Counted from the first letter of the stretch, positions 4,304 to 52,687 are shown. The stretch: 56,764 nt of DNA from a virus (IMGVR_UViG_3300037424_002697:1-56764), one strand, 5' to 3'. Made by a program: numbers and translations. The notes: generated from the sequence alone by a model not told the origin.

Positions 4304-4320
4304 CACGTACAAGAACGGAA

Positions 4321-5136
4321 TTACGCGGGTTTTTCGGCAGATTCGGCTTCTTCCGCCGATACGTCGTCAGGTATTTCTGGCGGTTCTATGCCCATGGGAA
4401 GGATGCCGCGTTCAGCGTTTAGTTTTTGCTCCAGTTCCCAGAGTTTTTTGCGGATAAGCTCACGGCCTTGGGGCGTGGTGCCCTCCCAGTGTTTCTGCAC
4501 AATGCGTTCAGTCTGGTGGTGATGAAAGTCGATTTTTTCAATGACGGTCACGGTATCAACTGCCCGGTCATTGTCGCTTAAGCCTTTGGTCAGGTCGGGT
4601 ATCTGGTCGTTGGACATGCGCCAGATAACCAGTGCTTCACTGACGGAAACATCGTTGCGACGCGTGGCGCGTTTGATGTGGCGCACGGCATTGGCTCGCA
4701 TCTCGATCATGTCGGCCAAAAGTTCGTGATTGGCCTGATTGACGTAGGCCCGCACGACATCGCCCTTTTCCGGCTGGCTGGCAGCGATCTGCTGGATGTG
4801 ACTCTTGAAAGGAGCGATGTCCTTGTTGGTGGACATCGCGTTGACCAATTCTTTAAGCCCGATAACCGTGGGGCTGAGCGGTTCCAGCGGTTCCTGCGGG
4901 TCAAGGTCACTGCGGCAGACAAAATTGGATGCAACTGCGTGTTGACTGGTAGGCTCCAAGAAAACTGGTTTGCCCAGCATTCCAGTGTTGGTGCCGGTGT
5001 CTGTAACCACGACCTCGACGCAGGTGCCGGTGGAGACTATCGTGGCTTCCGGCGGCGCGGGCTTTGGCTTGGGCTTGCGCTTTGCCGTGTTTTCAGACGG
5101 CTTTGACTTTACCGTTTTAGTTCGTTTGCGGCCCAT
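4321..5136 (-). CDS. Hypothetical protein, candidate terminase small subunit
   Basis: 271 aa, basic N-terminus, helical core, acidic tail, upstream of terL; function inferred from position only. Confidence 0.45.
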   Translation of the reverse strand: MGRKRTKTVKSKPSENTAKRKPKPKPAPPEATIVSTGTCVEVVVTDTGTNTGMLGKPVFLEPTSQHAVASNFVCRSDLDPQEPLEPLSPTVIGLKELVNAMSTNKDIAPFKSHIQQIAASQPEKGDVVRAYVNQANHELLADMIEMRANAVRHIKRATRRNDVSVSEALVIWRMSNDQIPDLTKGLSDNDRAVDTVTVIEKIDFHHHQTERIVQKHWEGTTPQGRELIRKKLWELEQKLNAERGILPMGIEPPEIPDDVSAEEAESAEKPA

Positions 5137-5140
5137 TACC

Positions 5141-5491
5141 TCAGTACTTTGCTCGATGCCAGCCGCTCCTTAAAAATCTTGCGGAGCCTCGATCCCAATC
5201 TTCTTGTTGGTCTATCTGCACCTGATTTCTGTCCAACCATTCTTGCCGCTGTGCGGGTGTAAGCGTCGAACAGCCGAGGGTGAGCAGGATCAAAATGGCT
5301 CCAAAGAGATTTTGTTTGACTTGGGCGCGGCGATTTTCAGGGACGATTGTGCCATTAGATTCAGCGATTTTATTACGCTTGTTGGCTTCGGCGTCCGCTT
5401 GCGCCTTGGTGTCCAAGGGGGCGGTTACCCGCTGTCCATTTTCCACGACTACGAATTTGCCGTCTGCTGGATTGTTTACGTTGTTTGCCAT
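5141..5491 (-). CDS. Hypothetical protein with an internal lipobox-like segment
   Basis: Start MANNV at 5491, 7 nt after GTTCTT; internal AILILLTLGC. Confidence 0.6.
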   Translation of the reverse strand: MANNVNNPADGKFVVVENGQRVTAPLDTKAQADAEANKRNKIAESNGTIVPENRRAQVKQNLFGAILILLTLGCSTLTPAQRQEWLDRNQVQIDQQEDWDRGSARFLRSGWHRAKY

Positions 5492-5522
5492 AGCGTTAAG
5501 AACAGAATAGCCCGGTTTACGT

Positions 5523-6188
5523 TTATTGTCCAAGCGCCGCTTTCGCATCGGCGTAGTCTTGGCCCACGTCTCCGCCCAGCACTTGGAGCTGGATCTTGGT
5601 GTCCTGAAGCTGGTCGTATTTGGTTTTCATGACATCCGTCATTACCTGCCCGGAATCACGCACGAAATTATCCGCGAACCTGTCAATTTCAGTAGCGATG
5701 TCCGCGTTGCTGATTGCGCTTAACTGGCCTATGGCGGCTCGACCGGCTGCGCATACGGTTTGTAGACAGCGTAGAAAGTCAGCCGCTTGTGTCATGGCGC
5801 TGTTTACATCACCCTGAATCTGCCCCAAGAAGTCATCTAGCTGTTCCTGCAATTCCCCCATTCGGTTCCACGGATGCCGGAGCAGCCGGTTTATCATGTT
5901 GGCGTAAGCTCCCGTGATCATTGCTTGAAGCTGGTTGACATCGCCGGTCGTTATCGGGGGCAGGTTCAGCCATGGACAGTTTGCGACCAGATTTTCGTAT
6001 AGCGCAAGGTCGATGTTTACAACCGGAATGAGGTTGCCGATATTTGGCACCAAATCGCTCAGTTCGCCGAGCTGTTCCAAAAGGCCAGCGAGGCTCCGCA
6101 AGGCGGTAAACTTTTTGTTTATCCGCTTCAGGACATCAAGCTGGAATGCCGCCAGCGTGTCGACAACTTGGCAAGGGTCTACGGCCAT
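5523..6188 (-). CDS. Hypothetical helical protein, possibly virion-associated
   Basis: 221-aa ORF with Leu/Gln-rich helical character. Confidence 0.65.
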   Translation of the reverse strand: MAVDPCQVVDTLAAFQLDVLKRINKKFTALRSLAGLLEQLGELSDLVPNIGNLIPVVNIDLALYENLVANCPWLNLPPITTGDVNQLQAMITGAYANMINRLLRHPWNRMGELQEQLDDFLGQIQGDVNSAMTQAADFLRCLQTVCAAGRAAIGQLSAISNADIATEIDRFADNFVRDSGQVMTDVMKTKYDQLQDTKIQLQVLGGDVGQDYADAKAALGQ

Positions 6189-6212
6189 AGTATCTTAATA
6201 GTAGTTACAGGT

Positions 6213-6467: not shown

Positions 6468-6470
6468 ACA

Positions 6471-8301: not shown

Positions 8302-8701
8302 GGATGATTCCTCTACGCACGACTTCAAATTCTTGTCCGCATTTGACGCAGGTGCGATGTTCCACTTTGGCTGGAAAGGACATCTCGCGGGCGTAATGCG
8401 AATCCCAGCCCGGCTCAGTGCCGATGGCTTCGATCACAGTGCCCTCGTCGATCAACAGGAAAGGTTGAAAACAGCCGTACGAAATCAGTTTCTTGTCAGC
8501 GGTCTGAATAACATCGCGTTCGTCTAGCCAATAGCCTTCATCCTTGATGACTGGGTTGTGGAATGTGAAACTGATGGTCAGGAAGGTAAAGCGTCCGCTG
8601 GGCGGCCTGCCGACGCGGCCCCAAAGAGCCACACTGGCGTTGCGGCCACGCCCAACATACCAGCGGCCTTCAATGAGCTGATCCTGTGGAATTTGTTTCA
8701 T
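8276..8701 (-). CDS. Hypothetical protein with C-terminal zinc ribbon
   Basis: CVKC..CPSC; coupled to the upstream stop. Confidence 0.65.
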   Translation of the reverse strand: MKQIPQDQLIEGRWYVGRGRNASVALWGRVGRPPSGRFTFLTISFTFHNPVIKDEGYWLDERDVIQTADKKLISYGCFQPFLLIDEGTVIEAIGTEPGWDSHYAREMSFPAKVEHRTCVKCGQEFEVVRRGIIHVCPSCDH

Positions 8702-9537
8702 TAATCAATGTGGCCGTTATCACCGGTGACCGTCCACTTCATATCGTCGATGAAGCGCCGAATGAATGGCTGGTATGTCCGATCAGGCTTGCTGTTTCCG
8801 TTGCCTTTGCACTGATGGACTGAGCCCTTGCGCGTCAAAGGGTGCGCGTGGTCGAAACCGACTTCCAACGTGGCGTGCGGTTTATTGTTTTGATCGCGCA
8901 GGCTGTAATACTCACGCTGGCTGTTCATACGCCAGTTGTTGTAATAGCTGCCGTTGCCGACGCAGTGGTTCATCAGGCGTCCCTCGCGCTCGAACTGAAG
9001 CGCGGTGACAAGTTTAACCCAGCGATAGTCCTCGTAAACTCTGATCACGACCGGTTTGTCGGTGACGTAGTTCCAGATGTTGGCCGAAACGTCCCGGTAC
9101 CAGAGCACGGCAGCGTCGGTTGCGACGGGGAAGCTGATGCGGTCGACGCGAGGCAGGCGGGTATCGTTCGCTTTCCAGTTGTTGAACCAGAGGATAATGA
9201 CTTCCAGCACGTTCCAGAGTTCGCGGCGGCGCGGCTGCACCGTGTCGAACCAAAATAGCGTTTCACCACGTTCGACAGCGGCGATTGCCCACGGTGGAAG
9301 TTCCTTGGGGTCGTGTTTCTGCCGGTCATGCCGGGGTTTTTTGAGCAAGTGAATGGTTTCGGTGTATTTGCACAGGCAAACTTCGCGGAAATTGGCGCAC
9401 ACGTCTTTTTCCGGCAATTTGCCAAGGATGTAGTTTCGGGCCACGGTCAGCACCCAGCGTTTGGCGTGATCATGGTACAGCCGTGCCGCGTATCGGCGCA
9501 GTTCGCGTTCGATGTCTGCAACGTTCAAAACGTTCAC
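8701..9537 (-). CDS. PcfJ-like domain protein
   Basis: EGRLMNHCVG...YYSLRDQNNKPHATLEV...QCKGNGN signature; GTTCTA 8 nt upstream. Confidence 0.8.
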   Translation of the reverse strand: MNVLNVADIERELRRYAARLYHDHAKRWVLTVARNYILGKLPEKDVCANFREVCLCKYTETIHLLKKPRHDRQKHDPKELPPWAIAAVERGETLFWFDTVQPRRRELWNVLEVIILWFNNWKANDTRLPRVDRISFPVATDAAVLWYRDVSANIWNYVTDKPVVIRVYEDYRWVKLVTALQFEREGRLMNHCVGNGSYYNNWRMNSQREYYSLRDQNNKPHATLEVGFDHAHPLTRKGSVHQCKGNGNSKPDRTYQPFIRRFIDDMKWTVTGDNGHID

Positions 9538-9586
9538 GGTTTAATAGAACCAGAAACCTGTAAACGCCGCAAGTAATAATTAAGGA

Positions 9587-10747: not shown

Positions 10748-10763
10748 GGTTTAACTACTTGGT

Positions 10764-11225
10764 ATGATTGGGCGATCCATCTTTTATGAACGGCTGCTTG
10801 TCTGTAAAGCCTGTGAGTTCTGGCGCGGAGCGTGTCTGAAAGGCCATGTGCTCCAAGGGACGTTGGGCTGCCCGTTGAAAAAATTCGAGGGCGTGGCTGC
10901 CGCCGGTTACATGGATGACCTGCCAGTGCCGACGCCGGAGCTGCCTGCGGTGAGCGCCACGGGCTGCTGTGGTCAGGTGCCGGAGGGTGACATCAAGCCG
11001 ATGTCTTGGGGCGAAGTCTGGCGGCACTTGGTGACCGCGATGGAGGATTGGAAAAAGGCGGGGTATCCGGTTGTCACCGGGGAGGTTTACACTGAACGTA
11101 CCAGTACTTGCAAAGCCTGCGTTCAATATCAGTGGTTTCAGTGCAAAATGTGCAAATGCGTCATCTACACGAAGGCCAAGCTCGCCACGGAAGATTGTCC
11201 GATTGGCTTATGGCCAAAGGTGTAG
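10764..11225 (+). CDS. Cys-rich protein with two RxxxCxxC..C..CP units (DUF6171-like)
   Basis: RLLVCKAC..CPLKKF and RTSTCKAC..CKMCKC..K..CPIGLW. Confidence 0.7.
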   Translation: MIGRSIFYERLLVCKACEFWRGACLKGHVLQGTLGCPLKKFEGVAAAGYMDDLPVPTPELPAVSATGCCGQVPEGDIKPMSWGEVWRHLVTAMEDWKKAGYPVVTGEVYTERTSTCKACVQYQWFQCKMCKCVIYTKAKLATEDCPIGLWPKV

Positions 11226-11235
11226 TTAGAGGGTT

Positions 11236-11670
11236 ATGCCTAAAGCCTTTACCGCCCAGTTCAGTGATTTGTCTGGCCCCACCAACCCCACCGGCATTCT
11301 TTCACCTGCTTTTTTGGCGCTCAAACTGGCGCTCGACCGGGGTGACACGCCGGAGAATGTGCTTCAAACGCTTTACGATTGGTTGAGCCAGAAGAAAATT
11401 GAACCGACGCATGTAGACAAAATTCTGGAACTTGAACCGGCGGCGGCTTATGACGCGCTCATCGCGCTTGTCGGTGGCCAGATTAATCCAAGAAGCCTCC
11501 CTCTGATCGTTCAGCAGACACTACAGAAAACGATCCGTTTGATTGCACAACGCTATGTGCACGGGCGGGAGCAGGAGCTGGCGAAGGAGCAGGAGCGTGT
11601 TTCGGGGATGAAGATGCGTTATGGAGCAGAGTCCGCTCAGCAAGTTGTGCGTCGTTTGCTGGCGTCTTGA
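11236..11670 (+). CDS. Hypothetical protein, candidate head protein
   Basis: GTAGTTA 7 nt upstream; C-terminal ESAQQVVRRLL peptide. Confidence 0.7.
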   Translation: MPKAFTAQFSDLSGPTNPTGILSPAFLALKLALDRGDTPENVLQTLYDWLSQKKIEPTHVDKILELEPAAAYDALIALVGGQINPRSLPLIVQQTLQKTIRLIAQRYVHGREQELAKEQERVSGMKMRYGAESAQQVVRRLLAS

Positions 11671-12640
11671 TTCCGAGTTTGGCGATCCTGTTGTAAAGCG
11701 CCTGCCGTGAAATTCCCAAACGCGTGCTGGATTCAAGTTTGTTCCACCGGCATTCCAGCAGCACCTTGATGATTGTTCGCGCTTCCGTGCGCTCCAACTG
11801 GGTCAGGTCGCTTATCGGGATGTTGAGGCAGTCCTGAAGATCGGATTCGCCCGTCATTTCCTGCTGGATATTCAGGTCTTTCAGGTTGACGGACCCGCCG
11901 CACAGGAGAGCGCAGCGATTCATCTCGTTTTGAAGCTGGCGCACGTTTCCGGGCCAATCGTAATTCATCAGCGCCTTTTGCGTGTCGGCATCAAACATTG
12001 GCGGTTGGCGTTTAAACTGGGCGCTGTAAAAGCGAAGGTAGGCGCTGGCCATGGGCAAAATATCGTGCGGGCGGTCACGCAGGGGTGGCACGACGATGGT
12101 TACGGTGCCGATGCGGTAAAATAAGTCTTCACGCAAGCGATTCTGTTTTACGCATTCGCTTGGTAGATTGTTGATCGCCGCAATGATGCGCACGTTGACT
12201 GTTTCCTCTCCAATCGCGCCCACCCGGCGCACGCGTTTGTCCTGAAGGAAGCGTAACAGCTTGGCTTGAAGCGCCAGCGGCATTTCGGAAAGTTCGTCAA
12301 GAAACGCCGTGCTTTGGTCGGCGTGCTTGAACATGCCAACGCGGTCGATGCTGGTTGTAAACGATCCTTTGATGCTGCCGAACAATTCGCTCTCGATCAG
12401 CTCAGCCGGGAGGCCCGCGCAGTTGATGCAGACCATTTGCTTTGAATTTCGCTTGCTGTGCGCGTGGATGAGTTCAGCGACGATTTCCTTGCCGGTTCCG
12501 GTTTCGCCTGCGATCAATACCGGAACGTCGGCAGGTCCAATTTTCTTTGCCAAAGCCATGATGCTTTTCATGGCTGGACTCTCAAATATGCGTGGTGGTT
12601 CCAATTCTTTGATTAAAACATGCTGCGGGAGTTCAGGCAA
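11483..12640 (-). CDS. Sigma-54 enhancer-binding-type AAA+ regulator with Fis-type HTH and no receiver domain
   Basis: GETGTGKE, ESELFG, FLDE, QAKLLRFLQ, REDLFYR, WPGNVRQL, LGISRQALYNRI. Confidence 0.9.
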   Translation of the reverse strand: MPELPQHVLIKELEPPRIFESPAMKSIMALAKKIGPADVPVLIAGETGTGKEIVAELIHAHSKRNSKQMVCINCAGLPAELIESELFGSIKGSFTTSIDRVGMFKHADQSTAFLDELSEMPLALQAKLLRFLQDKRVRRVGAIGEETVNVRIIAAINNLPSECVKQNRLREDLFYRIGTVTIVVPPLRDRPHDILPMASAYLRFYSAQFKRQPPMFDADTQKALMNYDWPGNVRQLQNEMNRCALLCGGSVNLKDLNIQQEMTGESDLQDCLNIPISDLTQLERTEARTIIKVLLECRWNKLESSTRLGISRQALYNRIAKLGIKTPANDAQLAERTLLHNASSSPKHAPAPSPAPAPARAHSVVQSNGSFSVVSAERSEGGFLD

Positions 12641-12642
12641 GT

Positions 12643-19218: not shown

Positions 19219-19264
19219 ACACTAAATACCTGCGCTACCCGGAGAGGGTGGTAGTTACTGCAAC

Positions 19265-21817: not shown

Positions 21818-21824
21818 GCCCCTG

Positions 21825-21853
21825 AGTGTAAACTATCAGGGGAAACTTGTCAA
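21825..21853 (-). promoter_or_regulatory. Sigma-70-like promoter, probably leaderless
   Basis: TTGACA-17nt-TACACT, -10 box 7 nt before ATG 21817. Confidence 0.75.
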
Positions 21854-23263: not shown

Positions 23264-23281
23264 GGCGTTTAGAACAGAAAA

Positions 23282-26640: not shown

Positions 26641-26700
26641 AAAATCAAAGAACTTGTAAAATTTATTGATTACTATACAAAACGGGTATACAACTTAAAC

Positions 26701-26780: not shown

Positions 26781-27080
26781 ATGCGCGAGCCTAAATACAA
26801 ATTGAACAAACGGGATGCGCAGCGCTGGCACGATTTGCTGGTCCGGCACTGTCTTGAGTGCCCGGACAAATCCGGCAAGGTGAAACGGCACCGCAAGTAC
26901 CCGCCGCTCACGCCAGCGGAGAACGTGGAGTTTGAAGCGCTGTGCGCCAAGCGCAGCCGGAAAATTGAATCCCATCCAGTGGTTAAAGCCTCTATCCGGC
27001 GGTCAATGCGCCGACTGCGCAGGGCCGAGAAAATGTTCGCGGAGTTGCAAGTCTTGATGCGTGTTAAAATTCAAAGTTGA
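26781..27080 (+). CDS. Basic hypothetical protein
   Basis: ATG 5 nt after the tRNA 3' end. Confidence 0.6.
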   Translation: MREPKYKLNKRDAQRWHDLLVRHCLECPDKSGKVKRHRKYPPLTPAENVEFEALCAKRSRKIESHPVVKASIRRSMRRLRRAEKMFAELQVLMRVKIQS

Positions 27081-27105
27081 CGGAAAATATAAGCGCGTAT
27101 ACAGT
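27077..27105 (+). promoter_or_regulatory. Sigma-70-like promoter, probably leaderless
   Basis: TTGACG-17nt-TACAGT, 7 nt before ATG 27113. Confidence 0.65.
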
Positions 27106-29390: not shown

Positions 29391-29921
29391 TCATTGAGGT
29401 AGAACGGGTTTTTCGTTGAAATGGATCAGAACCTCCGTGCGCTGTTCACCTTCGCAGCACCAGAATTTTCGAGTGCGCCCATCGGCGATCATCGAGTCTT
29501 CCTTAAAGAGCGCGTCACAAATGGCTTTGCCGATGTTATCCCAGTCAGGTTTGGATCGGCACATTTTTCCAGCGTGTTCCGTTTTCTTTTTCTTGCTCCA
29601 TGAGGCAGGCATTGTGATGTGGGCAATCACGTCAACGGCGTAAACGTCGGCTGTGAATACGCGATTGGGCGCGGCTTCTTTGATCCGGTCACAGTAATCA
29701 TGGTAGCGCAGGACGACTGGACGCTGTTTCCAGCGGTCGCGTTGGGTCATCCGAGGTTTGCCCATGGGGTCGCCAATGACGACAAACGAGAGTTGACCCG
29801 GAGCAGAGGCTTCTGGATTATCTTTTGGTTTTTCAGTTGCTTGCTTTTGAGATTTCATGTTTACTAGCAGCAGCTTGTTAACATTCGGATGCTTGAGCAA
29901 CTGTTCCGGCGTCCAACTCAT
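29391..29921 (-). CDS. rusA: RusA-family Holliday junction resolvase
   Basis: GKPRMT..MPASWSKKKK..KPDWDNIGKAICDAL..EDS. Confidence 0.88.
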   Translation of the reverse strand: MSWTPEQLLKHPNVNKLLLVNMKSQKQATEKPKDNPEASAPGQLSFVVIGDPMGKPRMTQRDRWKQRPVVLRYHDYCDRIKEAAPNRVFTADVYAVDVIAHITMPASWSKKKKTEHAGKMCRSKPDWDNIGKAICDALFKEDSMIADGRTRKFWCCEGEQRTEVLIHFNEKPVLPQ

Positions 29922-29951
29922 ACGGAATAAAGAACGTAGTTACTTGAGATT

Positions 29952-36110: not shown

Positions 36111-36147
36111 AGTCCGACCTAACTACGCGGCTCGCCCGTGTCAGTTA

Positions 36148-36726: not shown

Positions 36727-36728
36727 AC

Positions 36729-38366
36729 TCAGTAGAACTTGAATCCGTCTTTGAACCATTTTGGAAAAAATTTGTTGTTTTCCTCAAACAGTCGAATGAA
36801 GTCGCGGTCGAGGATGTAAGTTGATCCGTGATCCGTGTCGCTGCGCACGATGCGCCCACAGGCTTGCAGGATCGTCATGACAGTTTGCAGCGTGTACCAA
36901 TCGCGATCCAGTTTCATCCGGGCGGCAACCTGCCGGTCGCCAAGGTAGGGGTAAGGCACTTTGGCGATGATCTGAAACCGGGCAAGGTCATCGTCAAAAC
37001 TAAACCCTTCGGCGAGACTTGGGCTGAGCATGACGGTGGGTGCCGGGCTGACCCGGTGGAGATTGAAGTTGGCCGTTCGTTCCGATGCTCTGGTGGAAAA
37101 GAGCACGCGTTTATTGCTGCGGAAGTAATCGTAGATTTTCTGGCCCAGCGCGTAGCTGTGGCAGTGAATGATGCCTTTTTCCTGCGGGTGAGCCTCCAAG
37201 ATGGTTTCGCACATTTTCAGCAGGTGCGGCAGGGTTTGATCTATCCATGTGCGGCTCATGGAACCTACTGTCGTCATGTGAATCAGCCGGTTTTCCACTG
37301 GAAACGTGCTGTCCATCTCCAGCCACGCCACGCCGTCCGGCTCCAAGCCAAGGCTGCGGCAAAACACGTCTTTTGGACCCGGATAGGCGCTCATGTAAAC
37401 GCGCACTGAACTCATTTCGTCGATTAATTGCGGTACGAATGGCGCAGCGCTGAGCGGCTTGGCGGTGGATTGAAATTCGCCGTCCACTTTTTCCTGCCAG
37501 AAGACCCAGCCGTCAGGCCGGGCGGACATGTCGTCGACAGCGTAACTGAGGCGTCCAACGTGATTTTTAAGCTTGTTGAACTCGTCCTGCATTTTCCGGT
37601 TGTTGTATTCGCACGCTTGCAAGTTTGCGGTAAGCATTTCCATGCGTTCTTTGCAGATCACGAGGTAACTTTGGCGCAACCAGTCAGCGAATACCTCTAC
37701 ACTGTTTGTTTCCGGGGCGTAGCAGTCCGGTGCCCACGCTTCACGTGTGTCTTTGTTTACAATGACTTCAACAAAGCCGGTGATTTGTTTTTCCAGTGTG
37801 TGGCACTCGTCGGCGATCAGGACGGTGCGCGGTTTCAGTTCGCCGACGTACATGTGTTCTGTAAACAAATAAGGATAATTGGTGACAGCCACCTTGGACA
37901 TTTCGAAGCGCCAGCGAGCCTGCGTATAGGGGCACGATTTGTCGGAGCGCTGAGCGCATTTTTTGCCTCCGCCTTTTTCGCCTGCGGCGCTGGCCATGCC
38001 ACCGGCCATGCAGGTGATGTAGCGGTGACAGGGGTATTCAACAGAGCTTTTAAGAGAACCGGCGTCCGTGCGGAACTGGGGCAGGAACCGGGGAAAATCG
38101 TTTTCCAGTTGGTCTTGCAGCATTTTCTGGGTGACAAGGTAGTAGCCGCCGCGCTCAAATCCGGCAACCTCAAATGAATCTCCCCAAAGGCACGCGGCTG
38201 CGCCAATCCCGCTTTTGCCGATGCCCGTGGGCGCGGCGATCACGATGTCGCCGTAGCCTTTGCTTACGGCACGGGTGATGAAATCAAGCGCTCTGATCTG
38301 GGCTGCCCGTGGTTTTTCCATCGGGAAGTACGCCATCGCCGATTCCAATTGAACTGTTGAACTCAT
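36729..38366 (-). CDS. DinG/Rad3-like SF2 helicase
   Basis: APTGIGKS, Cys cluster ending CPY, DECH, KVPYP, QACGRIVRS..ILD. Confidence 0.9.
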   Translation of the reverse strand: MSSTVQLESAMAYFPMEKPRAAQIRALDFITRAVSKGYGDIVIAAPTGIGKSGIGAAACLWGDSFEVAGFERGGYYLVTQKMLQDQLENDFPRFLPQFRTDAGSLKSSVEYPCHRYITCMAGGMASAAGEKGGGKKCAQRSDKSCPYTQARWRFEMSKVAVTNYPYLFTEHMYVGELKPRTVLIADECHTLEKQITGFVEVIVNKDTREAWAPDCYAPETNSVEVFADWLRQSYLVICKERMEMLTANLQACEYNNRKMQDEFNKLKNHVGRLSYAVDDMSARPDGWVFWQEKVDGEFQSTAKPLSAAPFVPQLIDEMSSVRVYMSAYPGPKDVFCRSLGLEPDGVAWLEMDSTFPVENRLIHMTTVGSMSRTWIDQTLPHLLKMCETILEAHPQEKGIIHCHSYALGQKIYDYFRSNKRVLFSTRASERTANFNLHRVSPAPTVMLSPSLAEGFSFDDDLARFQIIAKVPYPYLGDRQVAARMKLDRDWYTLQTVMTILQACGRIVRSDTDHGSTYILDRDFIRLFEENNKFFPKWFKDGFKFY

Positions 38367-38391
38367 ACGACAAAGAACGTGTAGTTACGGC

Positions 38392-38799: not shown

Positions 38800-38813
38800 C
38801 CGTTCTTAACGGA

Positions 38814-39050
38814 ATGGCGAATCATTTTCGACAGACCGCAGAGCAACTGCGGCAGATGGCCAGTGTCAAACGTCCGTCCGGTGTCGAAATTACGGCTGCG
38901 GAGCGCGAGGCGCTGGAGAGCGCGGCCAAGACGCTTTGTCGGTTGGAGCAGTTAAAACACGACATGATTGCCAGCGATCCCGAGGATGAGGCGGCGTCTG
39001 ACCGGCTGTGTGATGAATTGATGGCGGTGCTGGGCGTCCATCTGCGGTAG
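38814..39050 (+). CDS. Hypothetical protein
   Basis: MANHF start 7 nt after GTTCTT. Confidence 0.6.
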   Translation: MANHFRQTAEQLRQMASVKRPSGVEITAAEREALESAAKTLCRLEQLKHDMIASDPEDEAASDRLCDELMAVLGVHLR

Positions 39051-39057
39051 TTAAAGC

Positions 39058-41415: not shown

Positions 41416-41863
41416 GAACGCAGAAGTGTTCGAAGACTTCCAAACGGCCTCCGGTGATTTTTGCCAAATCGTCAGCCATTTTTCGTTCCGTGGCTCGCCA
41501 TGTATCATCAATAACAATGGGAACGTCGGCACGAAACAGGTTAACATTTTTGATAAAACCAAGGCGTGGCTCGCTACCGACTGGGCCGTCCACGAGGATC
41601 AGGTCGTAGTCCTTAGGTAATTCAGCTTCCAAAACTGCAAGATCGTACCAGCCGTTGACCTGACATGCGCGGATATAATGGCTGGGGTACTTGTCCCAGT
41701 ACAGTGGGTTATCCTCGACCGAGGTTAATCGGTAGTGTTCCGACAGGTAGCGCGTGCTCACGCTGCCGCTGCCCAGTTCAAGAATGTGTTTGCCATTCGG
41801 CAGATGCGTTCTGATCCACTCGAACAACGGTGCTGTGATACCGGAGCCACCCCAGTTTTTCAT
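41351..41863 (-). CDS. SAM-dependent methyltransferase-like protein
   Basis: ILELGSG..S, YDLILVDGP..R, IVIDD. Confidence 0.75.
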   Translation of the reverse strand: MKNWGGSGITAPLFEWIRTHLPNGKHILELGSGSVSTRYLSEHYRLTSVEDNPLYWDKYPSHYIRACQVNGWYDLAVLEAELPKDYDLILVDGPVGSEPRLGFIKNVNLFRADVPIVIDDTWRATERKMADDLAKITGGRLEVFEHFCVLNQPDCSTQPAPSAKAQSLTP

Positions 41864-44050: not shown

Positions 44051-44226
44051 GTGATTTCCTGTTCAAGTTCCTTGGCGCACATGCGCAGAAAAGTTCCGGC
44101 TGAGAGCATCTGATCGCACGGAGTTCCAGCGGCCCGAGCTTCTTCTACTTGCCGCATGTACTGATCAGCGTCTTTGCGCCAGCGTGTTAGCAGTTTCACG
44201 ATTTTGGCTTTTTCTTCGTCGGTCAT
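44047..44226 (-). CDS. Small hypothetical protein (59 aa)
   Basis: MTDEEKAKI; 4-nt overlaps at both ends. Confidence 0.55.
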   Translation of the reverse strand: MTDEEKAKIVKLLTRWRKDADQYMRQVEEARAAGTPCDQMLSAGTFLRMCAKELEQEIT

Positions 44227-44753
44227 CGGATGAAAGTGTACCAGCAAGTTCCCATCAGGCTCACTCGGTCGCCCAGTAATTCGTCGACGGCTTCTTTGAC
44301 ACCGCAGGGTTCGCCGTAATCGTGGCCAGAGAGCATTCCGCCTTGTTTGATCTTGGGAAGCCATGCGGTGATGTCAGCTTTGACGTGTGGTTTTTCGTGA
44401 TTCGCATCGATGAACGCGAAGTCAACCGACTTGTCTTCAAATTCGGCGCTGGCTGCGGCGCTCTCCTTGATGAGCGGCTTCACGTGTTCTTCCAGACCTT
44501 CGCGGTGCAGCCGGGTCACAAATTCCTCCCAGATCGGCGTACCGACCTGCCGGGCATAGTCTGTTTGCTTGTTTACATTGTCCCAGAGATCAACCGCGTA
44601 AAGATCGAACGGGGTGCCGCGAGCGATAAGTTGCCGGGCAAGAAAAGCGCAGCTCGCTCCGGTGTAAACACCAATTTCAACGTAACGGCTGAAGCGGTCG
44701 ATACCCGCGACGTAGCGGTAAAACGGCATGTAGTTGAAAAAAGCGTCAGACAT
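44223..44753 (-). CDS. Class I SAM methyltransferase (Methyltransf_24-like)
   Basis: VEIGVYTGAS, VDLW, DFAFIDANH, GGMLSGHDY. Confidence 0.88.
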   Translation of the reverse strand: MSDAFFNYMPFYRYVAGIDRFSRYVEIGVYTGASCAFLARQLIARGTPFDLYAVDLWDNVNKQTDYARQVGTPIWEEFVTRLHREGLEEHVKPLIKESAAASAEFEDKSVDFAFIDANHEKPHVKADITAWLPKIKQGGMLSGHDYGEPCGVKEAVDELLGDRVSLMGTCWYTFIR

Positions 44754-45534
44754 TGCTCAAGTAATCGATGAGAGGTTGAATTTTGTCCCTGTGCTGGCGG
44801 AACGGGCGCGGCAGGTGTGCTTCGATGTACGTTCCGTCGGCCAGTTTTTTGGGATCAAACATCCAGTTGGCGCGGCAGAGGGCGCGGGCTGTGTAGGGGT
44901 CATAGCCGCGAGGGGCGTGGATGACTGGCACTGGGTTAAATTTGAGTAAAGCACGCAGCAGGCTTTCGTCGCTGAATGTGTCAGGGTCTTCGTGGTGAAC
45001 GCTACGGGTAATGTCTTCTTTGTGATCGAACACGCGCATTCCAGCGAAGCTGTGAACGAAAGTGGGCCAGCTAAGGCCGAGCGGGTTAATCAGTGTGCGC
45101 CAGACCATGCTTTCTGCGGTTAGGTAGCCGACAGTGAATTTTCCTGCTTCGGGGCCAATGTATAGTTCAGAGCCAACAGTAATCAAATATCCCGGCGGGC
45201 GTTGCTGGATCAATTTGTAAACATAAGCTGTCTGAAGGGGCAGAAGGTCAATGTCGTTTATCATGTTGACGGAAGCATCGTTCCATGCGGCTGCCAGATG
45301 ATAGCGGGCGATTTTGGATTGGTTTGGCATCGGCACGCCGGGAACAGGGTGGTAGACTTCAACATGTCCGTGCTGTTTTAATTCCGCAAGGCGGCTGGTG
45401 CTGGGTTCGCCGACAAGTGCCAGCCAGACTTCAATGTCACCAAACAGTGTTCGCCAGCCTTGAGCTACGAGCGGCCAGAATTCAATGAACTTTGGATTGT
45501 CGTCGCTGCTCAGGATGATGCGGTCAAACTTCAT
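44746..45534 (-). CDS. Putative GT-A glycosyltransferase
   Basis: FWPLV..W, DID (DxD) motif, SDE, H.PRP. Confidence 0.6.
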   Translation of the reverse strand: MKFDRIILSSDDNPKFIEFWPLVAQGWRTLFGDIEVWLALVGEPSTSRLAELKQHGHVEVYHPVPGVPMPNQSKIARYHLAAAWNDASVNMINDIDLLPLQTAYVYKLIQQRPPGYLITVGSELYIGPEAGKFTVGYLTAESMVWRTLINPLGLSWPTFVHSFAGMRVFDHKEDITRSVHHEDPDTFSDESLLRALLKFNPVPVIHAPRGYDPYTARALCRANWMFDPKKLADGTYIEAHLPRPFRQHRDKIQPLIDYLSNV

Positions 45535-45540
45535 GTTTCG

Positions 45541-46092
45541 TCATGCTTCAAAAACGTGCCGGGTGTCTGTTACTTCTTGGTGTTCGACGGCAATGCCTGC
45601 TCGGGTGAATTTTTCCGAATCCATGTAGCTGGCTCCGCTGCGTCCGGCCAGATAGGTTTTAGCCCCCAGACAGTAACAGATTTCGACCAGACGATCGGTG
45701 CCCGTTAACGTGGAAGTGTGTTCCATGACGATTTCAGTTTTGATGCCGAGCAGCGCGGCCATGCGCACGATTATCTGGGTGTTACATCGCCAAAGTTCTG
45801 CGTGTATACAATCGTCAAACTGGCTGAACCAGTCGGCGTATTGAGGCAGCTTGCGCTTGATGGCCGCCCAGTCTTCATGCGGGCAGGCGTATTTTTTGTC
45901 CTCAATCGGCTCGAAGTGCTGGATGTTTTGCACGCTCATGGAATACCAGTGTTCTTGAAATTTGAAGCGGTGCTGGTACACCCGGCGGTTGAACTGGCAC
46001 TTTGTAAGAACAACGAAAATGTTTACCGCTGCCATCTTGGCGAAGAAGGGACGCCAAGGCACGAAATTAGGTTGGTGAATCGCCACTTTCAT
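45541..46092 (-). CDS. WbqC-family protein
   Basis: AIHQPNFVPW..FF.K, RLVEIC..LGA.TYL.G..G..Y. Confidence 0.85.
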   Translation of the reverse strand: MKVAIHQPNFVPWRPFFAKMAAVNIFVVLTKCQFNRRVYQHRFKFQEHWYSMSVQNIQHFEPIEDKKYACPHEDWAAIKRKLPQYADWFSQFDDCIHAELWRCNTQIIVRMAALLGIKTEIVMEHTSTLTGTDRLVEICYCLGAKTYLAGRSGASYMDSEKFTRAGIAVEHQEVTDTRHVFEA

Positions 46093-46774
46093 AATGAGTC
46101 CAGTTTTTTCGCATGACGACGGTGATGTCGTTGTGCAGGTAGCTGCGAATCAATTCCCATGAATTACACCCGCACGCCTGAATCAGGCGCAGCAACTTGG
46201 CCGGTTGCCAGCGGATCATGCCTTGAGTAGGCACAATGAGATTTTTTGGAACATCAATGCTCAACACGTTGAATATGACACCACGTTTTGCGGCTGTAAA
46301 CAAACGATCAAGCAGTTCGGGATAATTGTGAGCGTCACCGGAATAGGAAAGGACGCCGCTGGCAACGATGACATCCGGTTTGAGCCGGATAATTTTGTCG
46401 AAGGTTGTGTCTTCGAGGGCGTTGCCGACCATGAATTTTGCGCCTGTTTCGCGCCAGCGTTCTCGCGCCCACTTTATGAGCTTGCGGTTGATGTCCATGC
46501 CCACATATTCCACGGAACCTTTCAGTGTTTTATACAGTTCTCCGTCATTACAGCCGTAATCCAGCAGTTTAATACCGCCTTCGCTGAACAGATCGAAGGC
46601 TACCAGTAAGCGGTGAATCACATCGAAACGAACCTGTCGGCTGCGGGCACTGAAACCGGAGGCAGCGCGAACGCCTTTTTCTTTAATCAGGGCTTCGTGA
46701 AAGTCAAAGGCGGAAATTTTCCGCCGGGAACCGGTCGCAGAAGTCTTGGTAGTGGAAGTCGTGTGTGTGCGCAT
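46067..46774 (-). CDS. Class I SAM methyltransferase
   Basis: Q.RF..LLDYGCNDG..YVGMDIN..DVIVASGVL; start uncertain. Confidence 0.8.
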   Translation of the reverse strand: MRTHTTSTTKTSATGSRRKISAFDFHEALIKEKGVRAASGFSARSRQVRFDVIHRLLVAFDLFSEGGIKLLDYGCNDGELYKTLKGSVEYVGMDINRKLIKWARERWRETGAKFMVGNALEDTTFDKIIRLKPDVIVASGVLSYSGDAHNYPELLDRLFTAAKRGVIFNVLSIDVPKNLIVPTQGMIRWQPAKLLRLIQACGCNSWELIRSYLHNDITVVMRKNWTHYESGDSPT

Positions 46775-47297
46775 AGTAGTTGGGATTTCGGTGGTTGAAC
46801 GCGTGATAAACAAGATGCCGCCATGACGGGTCGTATTTGACCAGCGTGATTCCGTGTTCAGTGCAGATTTGTTCTGTGTGCTGGTTCCATTTATGGAACG
46901 GCGGAACGAAGACTTTGCACTGAAGGAGCGAGCAGGACATCACAATGCTTAATTCTTGCGCGGCTCGATCCATCAATCGGTGATCGACATGAACCATGCC
47001 GTGGGCGGCCAGCTCACAACCGTTGCAGCGATGAGCGGCAATGCACTGTGGAACACCGACGCGCTGCATCCGGTAAAAGATCCGGTGGTCACTTTCCGTG
47101 TGCCAGATCGTTGGAAAAGTGCGTTCACGATCCAAGGTTTTTTCGCATTCACGCATGTCGAAAACTGCCGGGGATACGGCAAGGATGATACGAAGTTTTT
47201 TGGGTTTGAAGGTGTTACGAAGAAACTGAATCATCTTTTCCAGTTTCTTTGGGTCGGTGTTCAACGAAACGTCGTCAAAGCGAAAGGTGTAGATCAT
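46704..47297 (-). CDS. Polysaccharide deacetylase-like protein (DUF2334-type)
   Basis: FRFDDV, AAHGMVH, FVPPF. Confidence 0.7.
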   Translation of the reverse strand: MIYTFRFDDVSLNTDPKKLEKMIQFLRNTFKPKKLRIILAVSPAVFDMRECEKTLDRERTFPTIWHTESDHRIFYRMQRVGVPQCIAAHRCNGCELAAHGMVHVDHRLMDRAAQELSIVMSCSLLQCKVFVPPFHKWNQHTEQICTEHGITLVKYDPSWRHLVYHAFNHRNPNYYAHTHDFHYQDFCDRFPAENFRL

Positions 47298-47980
47298 GGC
47301 CGTACGCGTGCTCCGACGTGTTTACCTTGAGTTTTTTCATCCATTGGGCTGTGCGCGGGAAAGGGTCTGACATCGTGTTTTCCGTAGAATTCGATGGGTT
47401 TGTAGGTGAACGGCCCGTTGGGTGTAACGACCGTGGTGTTCTGCGGGTACAGGTCGTGGGCGAGTGAATCATTGTCACGCACCAGCGGCCAGATTCTCTG
47501 TTTCAGAAACTCTTGATCGTCGCCCATTTTGCCGGTGACAGGCCAAGCGGCCATGTGCGCGGCAAATTCCGGCCAGTGTCTACAGCCCCACATGCCGCCA
47601 AGAATCGGCACGATATGCTCGTAGTGGTCGCGCATCGTGTGCAGGCGTTTGCCACTTTCCAGCCACGCGGCAACTGCCGCCGCTTCGCGTGGATTTAACC
47701 GGCTGTCAAGGTCACGGCTGACAAAAATTTCGACTTTTGGATCGTACGCAGCTTCAAACCGCCAGAACAGCCCATCGTGAAGCCCGGCAGTTGCACTGCG
47801 AACGTGAACATCAAAACCTGCCTCAATGAGTTCTTCGCGCCAGCGCATCGGCACGTCGGTTCCGCAGTAGATGCGGCATTTCCAGTTGGGGTAGTACAGC
47901 GGGGCCAGTTTGATGTTGTTGGCCGCTCCAACCAAAAAGTTTACATCGGAGCCCCAGACTGAGAATGAAATCACTCTCAT
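47294..47980 (-). CDS. Putative glycosyltransferase
   Basis: ISFSVWG..WRF..SRDLDSRL.PRE..MRDH..GGMWG..DQEFL. Confidence 0.65.
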   Translation of the reverse strand: MRVISFSVWGSDVNFLVGAANNIKLAPLYYPNWKCRIYCGTDVPMRWREELIEAGFDVHVRSATAGLHDGLFWRFEAAYDPKVEIFVSRDLDSRLNPREAAAVAAWLESGKRLHTMRDHYEHIVPILGGMWGCRHWPEFAAHMAAWPVTGKMGDDQEFLKQRIWPLVRDNDSLAHDLYPQNTTVVTPNGPFTYKPIEFYGKHDVRPFPAHSPMDEKTQGKHVGARVRP

Positions 47981-48621
47981 GCAAGTTGGCGGGTTAGGAT
48001 CAGATTTTCGCCGTTCATAGCAAGCGGGTGAAAACCATGTTCCGCTGCCAGTTTAGACATTTCGTGCTGGTGAAAGTCGTGTTCGACGCAGATGATTTTT
48101 GTTTGTTTGAGAACTGTCCATGGGAGCGATCGAAACAGCTCAAGGTTCGTGCTCTCCACGTCGATATTGATAAAATCAAAGTCGAAGCCGAATTTGTCAA
48201 AGAGCATGGTCATCGGCAATGTGTAAACCCAAAAAGCCGTGTAAGTCACTTTCCAGCCCGCTTCCCATTTGGCTTTGTGTGCCGGATTCGTGGTTGAGAT
48301 CGCGTCCCCGCCGCTATCGAACCACTCAACCAGTTTGCTTTGGGAGGCAGCCACGGCGGCATTGACCAGAATAACGTTGGGGTTGTTTTTGTAGCCTTCA
48401 ACCAATTGTGTGAACGGTTTGGGACTTGGTTCAACCAGCACGGCAGACCAACCTGTTTCAATAAGTGCGCGGCTATTACTGAATGCACACGGATCGTAGG
48501 CACCAATTTCAAGTAATCGGCCTTTAGATATGCCTAGTCGTTGTAGTTCGTTTACGATGATTATTTGTTCTTGATTTTGGGAATAGATTTTTTGCGTGTT
48601 ATCCATGCGCGTTTGCACCAT
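47977..48621 (-). CDS. FkbM-family methyltransferase
   Basis: YSQN.E, LEIGAYD..SNS, LVEP, FINIDVE, ICVE. Confidence 0.85.
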   Translation of the reverse strand: MVQTRMDNTQKIYSQNQEQIIIVNELQRLGISKGRLLEIGAYDPCAFSNSRALIETGWSAVLVEPSPKPFTQLVEGYKNNPNVILVNAAVAASQSKLVEWFDSGGDAISTTNPAHKAKWEAGWKVTYTAFWVYTLPMTMLFDKFGFDFDFINIDVESTNLELFRSLPWTVLKQTKIICVEHDFHQHEMSKLAAEHGFHPLAMNGENLILTRQLA

Positions 48622-49303: not shown

Positions 49304-49340
49304 GGTGCTTAGAACTTGATTTTCTTGTTAAATATTAGGG

Positions 49341-50196: not shown

Positions 50197-51591
50197 TTGG
50201 GTTTGTTCCGCTCCCGCTGCCATGCGGCGTTTAATGTAGCTTTTGCGCCGTGGTTTAGCGTCGTCATCCTCGTCATCTGGTGTGTAATCAATTTCCTGTC
50301 CAACGGTCATGATCATGCGCTGAGGATCGATAGTGCCGTCGTAATGCTTGTAGGCTTCACCGTGCCGGTTAAGGAAGACAAAGTAGCGCACTCGGTCGTG
50401 TTTGTATTCATCGTCCGTGGCGCATAAACCGATGGCCGCGTCCACGATGCCCGCCTTCTCGAAACTCCCCTGAAACGATTTCATGCTGGGCACCTTTTTG
50501 CCGACCGTCTCCCGATTGCATCGGTCAGGCATAATGACGCAGCAACCCAGTTCGGCACCGAGTGCGCGGGCCTGCGTGTAGATGTCAGCCTGTTGCCGCC
50601 AATCAGGCATGTCTTTGTCTACTTTGTCCGGGCGCACTGTTTCCGCGTAGTCGATGACGATAACCTTTGGCTTCAGGTTGAAGATGTCGATGACCTGATG
50701 GGCGTGGGATTTAATTTGGCTGATGGTGGTGCTCTTGGAGGGATAGCCCTTGAACCAGATGTTGCCCCAGAGGTCGCGTTTGGCGGCTTTTTTGCCAGCC
50801 ATGATGCCTTTTTCCGGGGCGGCAAAGAAATCGTCCTGCGTCCAGCCGGTGATGTTGGTCAGCGCCCGCATGGCGGCCAGTTCCTGTGTGATCTCGCAGG
50901 CGTAGTAGAGCACGTCCGCGTCCTGACCTTTGGCGATATTTAGGGCGAGGTTGATAGCGAACGCTGTTTTGTACCGTTTGGGCGGCGCAAGCAGCACCAC
51001 AAGCCAGCCCGGCCCCCAACCGGTTTTCCAAAGTTTGTCGAAGGGTTCGTAGCCGGGCATCACACCGTAATCACGGCTCATTACCTTACGGACGATTTCA
51101 GGAATATCGTGATAGAGCGAGATGCCGAGATCAGCGTAGTTGGTGCCGACGGCAACCGCTTCCTGCATGATTTTTACAGGATCGACATTCTCCATTTTCC
51201 CTTCAGTCTGAGCCGCGTGAATTTTGCGGATGCCGTCGTAGATCGCCCGTTCCTTGGCGAACTTTAACGACAGGTCGAGGATGGCCTTCTTGTCGGACGT
51301 GTCGATGGCGGCCAGTTTCTCGACGTAATCCAGCGTTTCTTTGGCGTGGTCGATGTTTACATTGGCAGTTTTATGGAAGGCAAAGTTACCCAGCGTGCTG
51401 AAGTTGGGATAGGAGCCGTAAACCTTCTTGAACTCGATCAACCGAAACATCAATTCCGAGGCTGCTGGGCCGGTGAAGAACGCGGGCTTGATGATTTCCC
51501 CGAAGGCATGGAATTCCTCCGGGTGGCGGATCAGGCACGCGATGATCGCGTCTTGGAAATCCCCGGTGAAATTGTAAGTTTCCCAGCGCAT
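50188..51591 (-). CDS. DnaB-like replicative helicase
   Basis: LAPPKRYKT (Walker A-like), YYACE, IVIDYAE, LNRHG. Confidence 0.8.
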   Translation of the reverse strand: MRWETYNFTGDFQDAIIACLIRHPEEFHAFGEIIKPAFFTGPAASELMFRLIEFKKVYGSYPNFSTLGNFAFHKTANVNIDHAKETLDYVEKLAAIDTSDKKAILDLSLKFAKERAIYDGIRKIHAAQTEGKMENVDPVKIMQEAVAVGTNYADLGISLYHDIPEIVRKVMSRDYGVMPGYEPFDKLWKTGWGPGWLVVLLAPPKRYKTAFAINLALNIAKGQDADVLYYACEITQELAAMRALTNITGWTQDDFFAAPEKGIMAGKKAAKRDLWGNIWFKGYPSKSTTISQIKSHAHQVIDIFNLKPKVIVIDYAETVRPDKVDKDMPDWRQQADIYTQARALGAELGCCVIMPDRCNRETVGKKVPSMKSFQGSFEKAGIVDAAIGLCATDDEYKHDRVRYFVFLNRHGEAYKHYDGTIDPQRMIMTVGQEIDYTPDDEDDDAKPRRKSYIKRRMAAGAEQTQSD

Positions 51592-51599
51592 CGGCGGGA

Positions 51600-52658
51600 T
51601 TAAGAACGCCGCGTCAGCACTTCATTTCTGCGGGGTGTGAAGTAACTGGGTGCGCCTTGCAGATAAAGCCAGCAGTGATACTGCCTGATCGAAAGCGCGA
51701 GTGATTTCCAAAACTTCATTGGTTCGGTCACAGGTTCGCGTGGGTACAGAAAATCCTCTGGTTGGTGCCGGAAAATGCTGAGAATCTGTTTTACGGCATC
51801 TGGCAGTATTTGCTGGCGGGTAAGCCAAGCGAGACGCTGGTTGGTCATGTGCCGCTTATAGAACGTGTGAACTTGAAAAACGTTAAACCGGTGGCGTTGC
51901 ACGGCGGCGCTGCCTTTGATTTTGCGCTCGATGAAGGGTTTCAAGATGAAGTCCACGTAGCTTTCTTCAATAGCCAGCCATTCCGGGGCGAGTTGGAGTT
52001 CCTCTGTTTCGTAGAGCAGCTCCGCCGCGCCGCTGTTGAAAATCTTGTAGCGTATGAACCATCTGGCGGCGGTGATTTCACTGCTTAACATTGTGGCGGC
52101 CAGATCGTTTTTATCATCGCCGTCGGTGAGCACGGCTAAGCTGGTCAGGCTGAAGGTGCCGAATTGGTTGTGGCACATTTCCTGATAGGTTTTGGCGCGT
52201 TTGATGGATAATTCACCTGTCAACATTTTTGCCCTGAACGGCGTCGCTCGCAGTTTTTCGGTATTTTTGATGACGTGTTCGTTGTGGATTTTGTGCGCGA
52301 CCATGTTGGCGAGCATGAACATTCGCACGGAACAACGAGCTTTTTGAGCGTTGAGCGCCACCACGCTGCGGAACTGGCTAATGTTGTCCAACGCGTTGCG
52401 GTGAAAGACGGACAGGTGACAGTCGGTGTAAAGTCGCTGCAAATGGGGCAGTTCCGGGTCATCCATGTCGAGCGCATCCTCACGGAATTTTTCCGGCACA
52501 ATGTCAAATTTGACGCGATCCAGCGTCACTTTATCGGCCCGAGAGCCCATGTAAACAAGACAGCCTTTGGCGTGCGGGCACGCTTGGCACTGCGGATCAA
52601 AGCGGTCATGCTCCAAACCGTAGCAGGGCAAAGGTGCTTTTTGCGGTTGTCGTTCCAT
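51600..52658 (-). CDS. Hypothetical replication-module protein with N-terminal Cys cluster
   Basis: CYG..CQACPHAKGC; lies between helicase and polymerase; GTTCTT 9 nt upstream. Confidence 0.7.
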   Translation of the reverse strand: MERQPQKAPLPCYGLEHDRFDPQCQACPHAKGCLVYMGSRADKVTLDRVKFDIVPEKFREDALDMDDPELPHLQRLYTDCHLSVFHRNALDNISQFRSVVALNAQKARCSVRMFMLANMVAHKIHNEHVIKNTEKLRATPFRAKMLTGELSIKRAKTYQEMCHNQFGTFSLTSLAVLTDGDDKNDLAATMLSSEITAARWFIRYKIFNSGAAELLYETEELQLAPEWLAIEESYVDFILKPFIERKIKGSAAVQRHRFNVFQVHTFYKRHMTNQRLAWLTRQQILPDAVKQILSIFRHQPEDFLYPREPVTEPMKFWKSLALSIRQYHCWLYLQGAPSYFTPRRNEVLTRRS

Positions 52659-52687
52659 ACACCCCCAAGAACACCGTTCTTTTCACT

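Follow-up and report, generated by a model that had tools for sequence, protein, structure and literature searches.

Most middle and late mRNAs of the Thermus phage phiYS40 are reportedly leaderless and arise from extended -10 promoters (PMC3594737, PMC4842269), and -10 regions adjacent to open reading frames (ORFs) are described as a common expression mode in Deinococcus-Thermus (PMC12340547). Here, we analyse GTTCTW, a short box that stands just before gene starts in the virus fragment IMGVR_UViG_3300037424_002697 (56,764 nt; "the window" refers to this whole stretch). We propose, from the placement and sequence of its copies, that GTTCTW is probably the core element of one-piece, -10-only promoters, a class producing leaderless or near-leaderless mRNAs. 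Start-adjacent promoters of leaderless type are already known as a kind; distinctive here are the box sequences, two phage classes of box sorted by gene function, three start-adjacent classes in all, a genome free of Shine-Dalgarno (SD) sites and the lack of a recognisable sigma factor or polymerase to read the boxes.

The likeness to phiYS40 lies in a large phage with later promoters lacking a -35 element, leaderless messages (here predicted) and no dependence on SD sites; phiYS40 promoters, however, are extended -10 elements (TGnTA-like) read by host polymerase, whereas our boxes are unlike a -10, fall into two discrete classes sorted by function and are joined by host-type promoters that also adjoin ATG. 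With the Deinococcus-Thermus mode, and with the promoter boxes that GeneMarkS-2 reportedly models for leaderless genes (PMC6028130), they share a single short box a few bp before the ORF, a dispensable -35 and a constrained spacing, but the boxes there are cellular, of TANNNT-type -10 sequence and served by the housekeeping sigma factor, and those here are phage-specific words. Late promoters of T4 are one-piece TATAAATA elements, which gp55 recognises together with gp33 and the gp45 clamp. The present lineage resembles T4 in having a T4-like virion module and a single box without a -35, in many copies including some inside upstream genes; it differs from T4 late TATAAATA in the sequence itself, in placing GTTCTW at replication rather than late genes, in boxes that adjoin starts and in having no gp55 or gp33 match. 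Short phage-specific promoter words for temporal classes are also found in giant phages, namely the late promoters AACA-N6-TA/G of AR9 and TATG of phiKZ, which multisubunit RNA polymerases of the phages recognise; AR9 5' untranslated regions are 26-491 nt long (PMC5312081), unlike the 4-10 nt to the start codon here, where no phage RNA polymerase genes were recognised. The "moraphage" (PMC12619734) belongs to another lineage, which infects Bacteroidota and has a sigma factor. A literature search for GTAGTTA, the second box described below, as a phage promoter gave no relevant title among those listed (GTTCTT itself was not searched in print), and among the literature on leaderless jumbo-phage promoters we found no description of this lineage.

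The window is a linear IMG/VR virus record, about 25% complete, with 54% G+C and genes mostly on the minus strand. A relative, G001 (211,113 bp, 93% complete), has a DnaB 65% identical to that of the window and was the only one returned when a PolA alignment was used to scan for more viral relatives; the nearest cultured phages share <30% identity in capsid protein and DnaB, and the family comes from sediment and freshwater metagenomes. Gene calls are our own, made from ORF length plus a codon log-odds score, and are crude and approximate; proteins were annotated with PHROG and Pfam, for 78 ORFs of the window and about 270 of G001.

All 13 sites listed in an earlier note on this DNA are present, although its minus-strand coordinates lie 1 above the lower end of the hexamer, and its claim that they stand close to starts is borne out: the gap from hexamer to ATG or GTG is 6 nt at seven sites, 7 nt at three, 8 nt at two and 10 nt at one. 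A 14th site, 29400-29405 (-), was absent from that list. The sites are as follows.

4311..4316 (-): GTTCTT, 7 nt to ATG 4303 of a 148-aa unknown protein, an in-frame internal start of ORF 3857-4312; ortholog site in G001 at 51672 (-)
5498..5503 (-): GTTCTT, 6 nt to ATG 5491, an in-frame internal start of ORF 5141-5548
9545..9550 (-): GTTCTA, 7 nt to GTG 9537 of a PcfJ-like protein (8701-9537)
23270..23275 (-): GTTCTA, 6 nt to ATG 23263
26648..26653 (-): GTTCTT, 7 nt to ATG 26640; back to back with a tRNA promoter
29400..29405 (-): GTTCTA, 10 nt to ATG 29389; lies within the RusA gene, at its 3' end; ortholog site in G001 at 68400 (-)
29930..29935 (-): GTTCTT, 8 nt to ATG 29921 of RusA; adjoins the GTAGTTA of the divergent gene
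36733..36738 (-): GTTCTA, 6 nt to ATG 36726 of a NUDIX protein; lies at the 3' end of the DinG-like gene
38373..38378 (-): GTTCTT, 6 nt to ATG 38366 of the DinG-like helicase; 2 nt from the GTAGTTA of the divergent gene
38802..38807 (+): GTTCTT, 6 nt to ATG 38814 of a 78-aa ORF ending at 39050; ortholog site in G001 at 79295 (+)
49310..49315 (-): GTTCTA, 6 nt to ATG 49303 of a DNA methyltransferase (phrog_3816)
51602..51607 (-): GTTCTT, overlapping the upstream TAA stop, 10 nt to ATG 51591 of DnaB
52667..52681: the pair AAGAAC-ACC-GTTCTT, whose minus box (52667-52672) lies 8 nt from ATG 52658 and whose plus box (52676-52681) lies 6 nt from GTG 52688 of PolA

Annotation thus agrees with the earlier assignment of the boxes to the genes for PolA, DnaB, the DinG-like helicase, RusA, the NUDIX protein and the DNA methyltransferase.

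Might these placements have arisen by chance, or simply follow from composition or codon usage? The total number of GTTCTW sites speaks for this, being within the range of shuffled sequence and not over-represented (55 against 42.7±6.7, with 4/100 shuffles reaching 55). The positions do not: in window ORFs of at least 80 codons, GTTCT occurs 4-11 nt before ATG/GTG 19 times against 5.9 expected, it ranks third among 5-mers before long-ORF starts, behind TAGTT and AGTTA, and the word precedes the unadjusted longest-ORF start of 9/65 called window genes, where about 0.25 would be expected by our arithmetic from word frequency. The same enrichment at 4-11 nt recurs in G001 for GTTCTT (26 observed, 7.3 expected, genome total 150), GTTCTA (11 observed, 3.0 expected, total 61) and TAGTTA (38 observed, 2.8 expected, total 58), the last being the top hexamer. 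A start lies <=14 nt downstream at 58/211 GTTCTW sites of G001, most commonly at 6 nt (15 sites), 7 (10), 8 (6) and 9 (6), and at 41/58 TAGTTA sites, mostly at 4 nt.

Conservation extends further. When metagenomes were scanned with a DnaB alignment, 32 loci (39-87% identity) were obtained, of which 22 were examined for box positions, ten being excluded as near-duplicates or short (L098, L100, L110, L111, L115, L119, L121, L122, L125 and L127); totals are over 19 dereplicated loci, L106, L113 and L117 having been dropped as duplicates. In these, GTTCTW precedes a start at 58/160 sites against 25/233 for the reversed word, and GTAGTTA at 8/10 against 1/19 for its control. In G001, the orthologs of PolA, DnaB, RusA and the DinG-like helicase keep the box, as do the divergent neighbour of PolA and the gene that follows RusA. 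GTTCTW precedes dnaB in 15/25 relatives' loci, including those with DnaB identities of 39% and 44%, and 14/19 sequences retain the WAGAAC-N3-GTTCTW pair at the PolA junction amid varying flanks. Box variants in the family include ATTCTT and GTAAATA-like words. With orthologous sites kept down to 39-50% DnaB identity, and with the G001 enrichment, the 19-locus controls and the PolA junction all against it, chance is refuted and its probability is next to nil: the GTTCTW signal is confirmed as real and conserved in the lineage.

The top ranks of TAGTT and AGTTA come from a second word, GTAGTTA, which lies 4-9 nt before nine other window starts and is presumably the "first motif" of the earlier note:

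1197..1203 (-): 6 nt to ATG 1190 of a gp53-like baseplate wedge protein
6201..6207 (+): 5 nt to GTG 6213
10752..10758 (-): 4 nt to GTG 10747, in a 16-nt divergent gap
11222..11228 (+): 7 nt to ATG 11236; the upstream gene ends at the TAG within this box
19251..19257 (+): 7 nt to ATG 19265
29936..29942 (+): 9 nt to ATG 29952
36120..36126 (-): 9 nt to ATG 36110
38381..38387 (+): 4 nt to ATG 38392
39047..39053 (+): 4 nt to ATG 39058 of a gp6-like baseplate wedge protein

Judged by sequence, the boxes are one family with two discrete classes. An expectation-maximisation motif search in the 24 nt before 326 gene starts converged from any seed on G-T-W-N-T-T-A, found at 120/326 genes; the base after GTA is G in 38 cases, T in 9, A in 6 and C in 3, and that after GTT is C. 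The fuller GTTCTW consensus reads A-T-n-C-n-GTTCT-W-A, with A at -5 in 30/45 true sites, T at -4 in 24/45 and C at -2 in 27/45. Neither box has a -35-like element upstream, and in the 45 nt before GTTCTW nothing is conserved beyond positions -5, -4 and -2; the word thus departs from sigma70 promoters, with their TATAAT-like -10 and a TTGACA-like -35 at 16-18 bp. An apparent enrichment of AGTTGA and GCAGTT in close relatives was set aside as an artefact of a conserved Met-rich coding stretch. In G001, the sheath gene is preceded by GTAGTTA twice in tandem, at distances of 15 and 54 nt, and the major capsid gene has neither box (region 129,140-129,215 (+); L010), its ATG being preceded by a hairpin and then a C/A-rich, unstructured-looking stretch of 45 nt.

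The boxes gather at the heads of gene strings. One stands at 47/76 first genes after a divergent junction against 59/249 co-directional genes (p=1.7e-9). Back-to-back pairs of boxes occupy divergent gaps of 15-34 nt: two such gaps (25 and 30 nt) have one box of each class, and the PolA gap (29 nt) has two GTTCTT boxes. Genes without a box that follow a small gap mostly begin 1-7 nt behind a stop codon, and 54 co-directional pairs overlap by 4 nt. A tally of 325 genes gives 106 with a box, 127 coupled (gap <=8 nt), 11 with a sigma70-like promoter and 81 unexplained. The earlier note had held the motif to be absent from translationally coupled internal genes, and this stands in part: of 110 genes overlapping or touching the one upstream (gap 0 or less), only 8 have either box, but four boxes lie 1-17 nt after upstream stops (29400, 36733, 51602 and 4311).

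The two classes also sort by gene function:

Virion genes of G001 (14): GTANTTA-type 6, GTTCTW 1, neither 7
DNA-metabolism genes of G001 (17): GTANTTA-type 0, GTTCTW 7, neither 10
Virion genes of the window (5): GTANTTA-type 3, GTTCTW 0, neither 2
DNA-metabolism genes of the window (4): GTANTTA-type 0, GTTCTW 4, neither 0

GTTCTW therefore goes with DNA-metabolism genes and GTANTTA with virion genes (Fisher p=0.0047 in G001), as the earlier note's view of a box specific to a gene class would have it.

A third class of start-adjacent element is of host type, consisting of an AT-rich stretch, GTTGAC(A/G), a 15-18 bp spacer and TATACA; the corresponding regular expression has 23 matches, against 3-11 in each of 20 shuffles. 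Examples in the window are the following.

26666..26692 (+): TTGATT-N15-TATACA, the -10 ending 8 nt before the 5' end of tRNA(CUA) at 26701
27077..27103 (+): TTGACG-N15-TATACA, 9 nt to ATG 27113 of an AAA+ ATPase
21825..21853 (-): TTGACA-N17-TACACT, 7 nt to ATG 21817

Genes behind these promoters have neither box. In 11/15 sigma70-like promoters counted with a downstream protein gene, the -10 hexamer ends 6-11 nt before ATG, so that even host-type promoters leave no room for a leader, and GTTCTW (6-9 nt) and GTAGTT (5-10 nt, with a peak at 5 nt, equal to 4 nt after GTAGTTA) fill the same slot as this -10. Generic sigma70-consensus and terminator-like sites showed no excess over shuffles, and only three of the promoter matches fall in our early class. 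The promoter before ATG 21817 contains a hairpin, CCCCTGA-TAGTTTACAC-TCAGGGG (21818-21845 (-)), whose loop holds the -10-like TACACT. In G001, at about 65,950-66,043 (-) (L007), the sigma70-like promoter TTGACG-N15-TATACA leads into a tRNA-like stretch, left uncalled by ARAGORN, and not into an ORF start. A box before a tRNA gene would show an effect on transcription, but 38 loci of relatives yielded no tRNA at all, and a single transfer-messenger RNA call there is probably false.

The earlier description of a promoter-like, class-specific box is supported by the enrichment at heads of gene strings, the occupation of the -10 slot, the sorting by function and the lack of a -35 partner. In the mechanism that we propose, three promoter classes would all adjoin start codons: GTTCTW before replication, recombination and some metabolic genes of a T4-like jumbo phage lineage, GTAGTTA before virion and other genes, and the host-type -35/-10 class before a tRNA and genes presumed to be early. 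With the box ending 6-10 nt before ATG/GTG, RNA synthesis would set in at the start codon or 1-4 nt upstream of it, and messages starting there would be leaderless or near-leaderless and would need no SD site; genes without a box would mostly be read through coupling to the upstream gene. We infer from sequence the promoter action on DNA, the transcript start, the timing and the reading factor, and the label "middle phase", used in the earlier note, derives from gene function only. Neither the leaderless messages implied by the spacing nor the lack of an SD signal figures in that note.

The bases after the boxes are consistent with such a start. After GTAGTTA at spacings other than 4 (n=42), C occupies +4 in 22 cases (p=3e-4) and a purine +5 in 31 (p=0.0014); after GTTCTW at spacings of 8-11 (n=28), a pyrimidine occupies +6 in 18 and a purine +7 in 19, and 41/46 GTTCTW genes have a pyrimidine at -1. 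Starts exactly 4 nt after GTAGTTA, in the window and G001 together, are GTG in 12/26 cases, often with AAC as the second codon, against 1/34 at spacings of 5-9 (p=6.6e-5); such an excess would be expected if the base that starts RNA there need only be a purine.

A step of this kind might also be a point of cleavage, and this bears on the suggestion that the box is the RNA site of a phage protein, either a RegA-like repressor or an endoribonuclease that cuts after the box and creates leaderless 5' ends. In T4, the RegA regulon consists of early and replication messages repressed translationally at their start codons. The replication and nucleotide-metabolism targets here, and the position at the start codon, resemble that regulon, yet PHROG and Pfam gave no RegA- or RegB-like protein in the window or G001, the virion-gene class of box has the same geometry and the first genes at divergent gaps of 15-34 nt would need a promoter in any case. 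We regard this as quite unlikely.

What of translation itself? There is no SD signal in these genomes: SD core 4-mers lie upstream of 30/326 genes against 55/978 control windows inside genes, and GTTCTW and GTAGTTA contain no GGAG, GAGG or AGGA, in a comparison made with the conserved CCUCC tail (the fragment's record holds no 16S). As in leaderless genes with a -10 adjacent to the ORF, where the box ends about 5-8 nt before the start, a start-adjacent box (GTTCTW peaking at 6-7 nt) is combined with the lack of an SD site. With an SD site the boxes share the sense strand and a position 4-10 nt before the start, within the distance typical of SD sites (about 5-10 nt), being 6-10 nt away at the 14 window sites and most commonly 6-9 nt in G001; they differ from it in lacking CCUCC complementarity, in serving few internal genes, in sorting by function, in occupying the -10 slot and in their spread, a box being present at 106/325 genes and not at most of them.

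These features bring into play a reading in which the boxes are non-SD ribosome-recruitment signals on RNA, an orthogonal ribosome-binding site (RBS) of two sequence classes, with promoters elsewhere. A distance of 4-10 nt before ATG/GTG is indeed typical of an RBS, leadered genes would need another start signal where SD cores are absent, some boxes lie before internal genes and inside upstream coding sequences (CDSs), and coupled genes would need no box, as is the case for all but 8/110. On the other hand, GUUCUW and GUAGUUA cannot pair with one common stretch of rRNA, neither is complementary to the 16S CCUCC tail (from the sequence and established knowledge), and position 4 of GTANTTA takes all four bases, unlike a base-paired position. 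Messages from the sigma70-like promoters, 6-11 nt before ATG, would be translated with no box; neither the function sorting nor the enrichment at heads of gene strings is expected of an RBS; and the fixed C-purine step after GTAGTTA and the excess of GTG at spacing 4 make no sense in terms of translation. At the sheath, primase and helicase genes, the box stands 13-15 nt from the start, too distant for a ribosome site and acceptable for a promoter, and at divergent gaps of 15-30 nt both promoters would be pushed into the opposite coding regions. Overall, we consider recruitment of ribosomes by the boxes unlikely. A more elaborate form, in which two orthogonal, class-specific translation-start signals (replication and virion) would be read by a phage-modified ribosome or initiation factor in a non-SD host, with the programme timed by translation, seems to us decidedly doubtful.

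The PolA junction raises one further option, that the box is an operator half-site of a DNA-binding regulator overlapping promoters and not itself the recognition element. There, the inverted repeat WAGAAC-N3-GTTCTW (52667-52681; G001 97389-97403; loci L097-L123) keeps a spacer of 3 nt in 14/14 cases while the distances to the starts vary over 6-10 nt, and G001 encodes small helix-turn-helix proteins. Most sites, by contrast, are single and non-palindromic, with an upstream consensus of A-T-n-C-n instead of AGAAC; elsewhere, back-to-back boxes are separated by 0 or 2 nt; and no other conserved promoter element lies near the boxes. An operator in place of a promoter core is thus very unlikely in our estimation, and to judge by the repeat a dimeric binder may use the PolA-junction palindrome as well.

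Returning to GTTCTW as a promoter core, several points weigh against our proposal. An RBS would likewise stand 4-10 nt before the start, as the boxes do, and some boxes lie 1-17 nt after an upstream stop or inside the upstream CDS (29400 and 36733). GTTCTW is unlike TATAAT. The second sigma factor that the earlier note named as the reader was not recovered, with no Sigma70_r2 match in the window or two relatives; G001 encodes only small region-4-like helix-turn-helix proteins, which are not full sigma factors. Nor was there a gp55- or gp33-like PHROG or Pfam match among the 78 window and about 270 G001 ORFs (homologues that have diverged strongly could escape, as could any in the 75% of the genome missing here), and no phage RNA polymerase genes were recognised in the window or the G001 ORFs. 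The 81/325 genes outside all classes are unaccounted for; in G001, neither box is in range at 10/17 DNA-metabolism and 7/14 virion genes, the box-less genes including those for the capsid protein, prohead protease, RecA and ligase, and GTTCTA stands at one weakly annotated baseplate-hub gene. At a spacing of 7, the pyrimidine-purine step after GTTCTW tracks the start codon and not the box. Five of the 14 window starts (those at boxes 4311, 5498, 36733, 38802 and 52676) were picked with the motif in view, because these sites precede in-frame internal ATG/GTG codons; that of PolA at 52688 is supported by N-terminal alignment with a relative. The avoidance of box words inside genes, from sense and antisense counts against permuted words, is confounded by stop-codon content. 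Finally, a look-up of sequencing runs for 36000-42000 of the window returned two DNA runs, both sediment metagenomes, and 0 RNA runs.

If our proposal is true, a whole uncultured lineage of T4-like giant phages would have three promoter types fused to start codons and no ribosome-binding sites. Its messages would lack leaders and its host must therefore translate leaderless messages efficiently. The boxes would mark true starts and transcription units where SD-expecting gene finders misplace starts, and would let hundreds of unknown genes be sorted into temporal classes from sequence alone. It would also raise the question of what reads GTTCTW and GTAGTTA without a recognisable sigma factor or phage polymerase.

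Besides PolA, DnaB, the DinG-like helicase, RusA and the NUDIX protein, the window encodes several methyltransferases, baseplate-wedge proteins, sugar-modification enzymes, a sigma-54 activator and a single tRNA (anticodon CUA). The virion module of G001 is of T4 type (Gp23 capsid protein, S77 protease, sheath and portal), and the genome also has genes for tubulin, RecA, NAD ligase, primase and SbcCD. In the window, a run of sugar- or polysaccharide-modification genes at 41351-48621 (-) comprises a sulfotransferase, a glycosyltransferase, a WbqC-like protein, and FkbM and other methyltransferases; its genes are mostly joined by overlapping or abutting stops and starts, without a box.

The sigma-54 activator (11483-12640 (-)) consists of an AAA+ domain and a Fis-type helix-turn-helix, with no receiver domain. 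Its homologues form about 30 clusters (355-386 aa, 51-79% identity) on contigs of up to 228 kb, and its named cellular homologues near 50% identity are from Verrucomicrobiota in 5/5 cases, our sole lead to a host; a scan of bacterial genomes with the same protein gave mixed phyla at 35-43% identity. Sigma-54 promoters were considered and rejected, a loose GG-N10-GC scan showing no clustering at gene starts.

The tRNA (26701-26775 (+)), behind the sigma70-like promoter at 26666-26692, has an anticodon of amber suppressor type, CUA (labelled Pyl by ARAGORN); no tRNA with this anticodon is present in G001. Recoding of TAG was rejected, since the main ORFs are not lengthened when TAG is read as sense and TAG ends 11/63 called window genes despite the CUA tRNA. 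The TAG trinucleotide occurs 506 times in the 56.8 kb of the window (both strands) and 3501 times in the 211 kb of G001, and is thus about half as frequent in the window.

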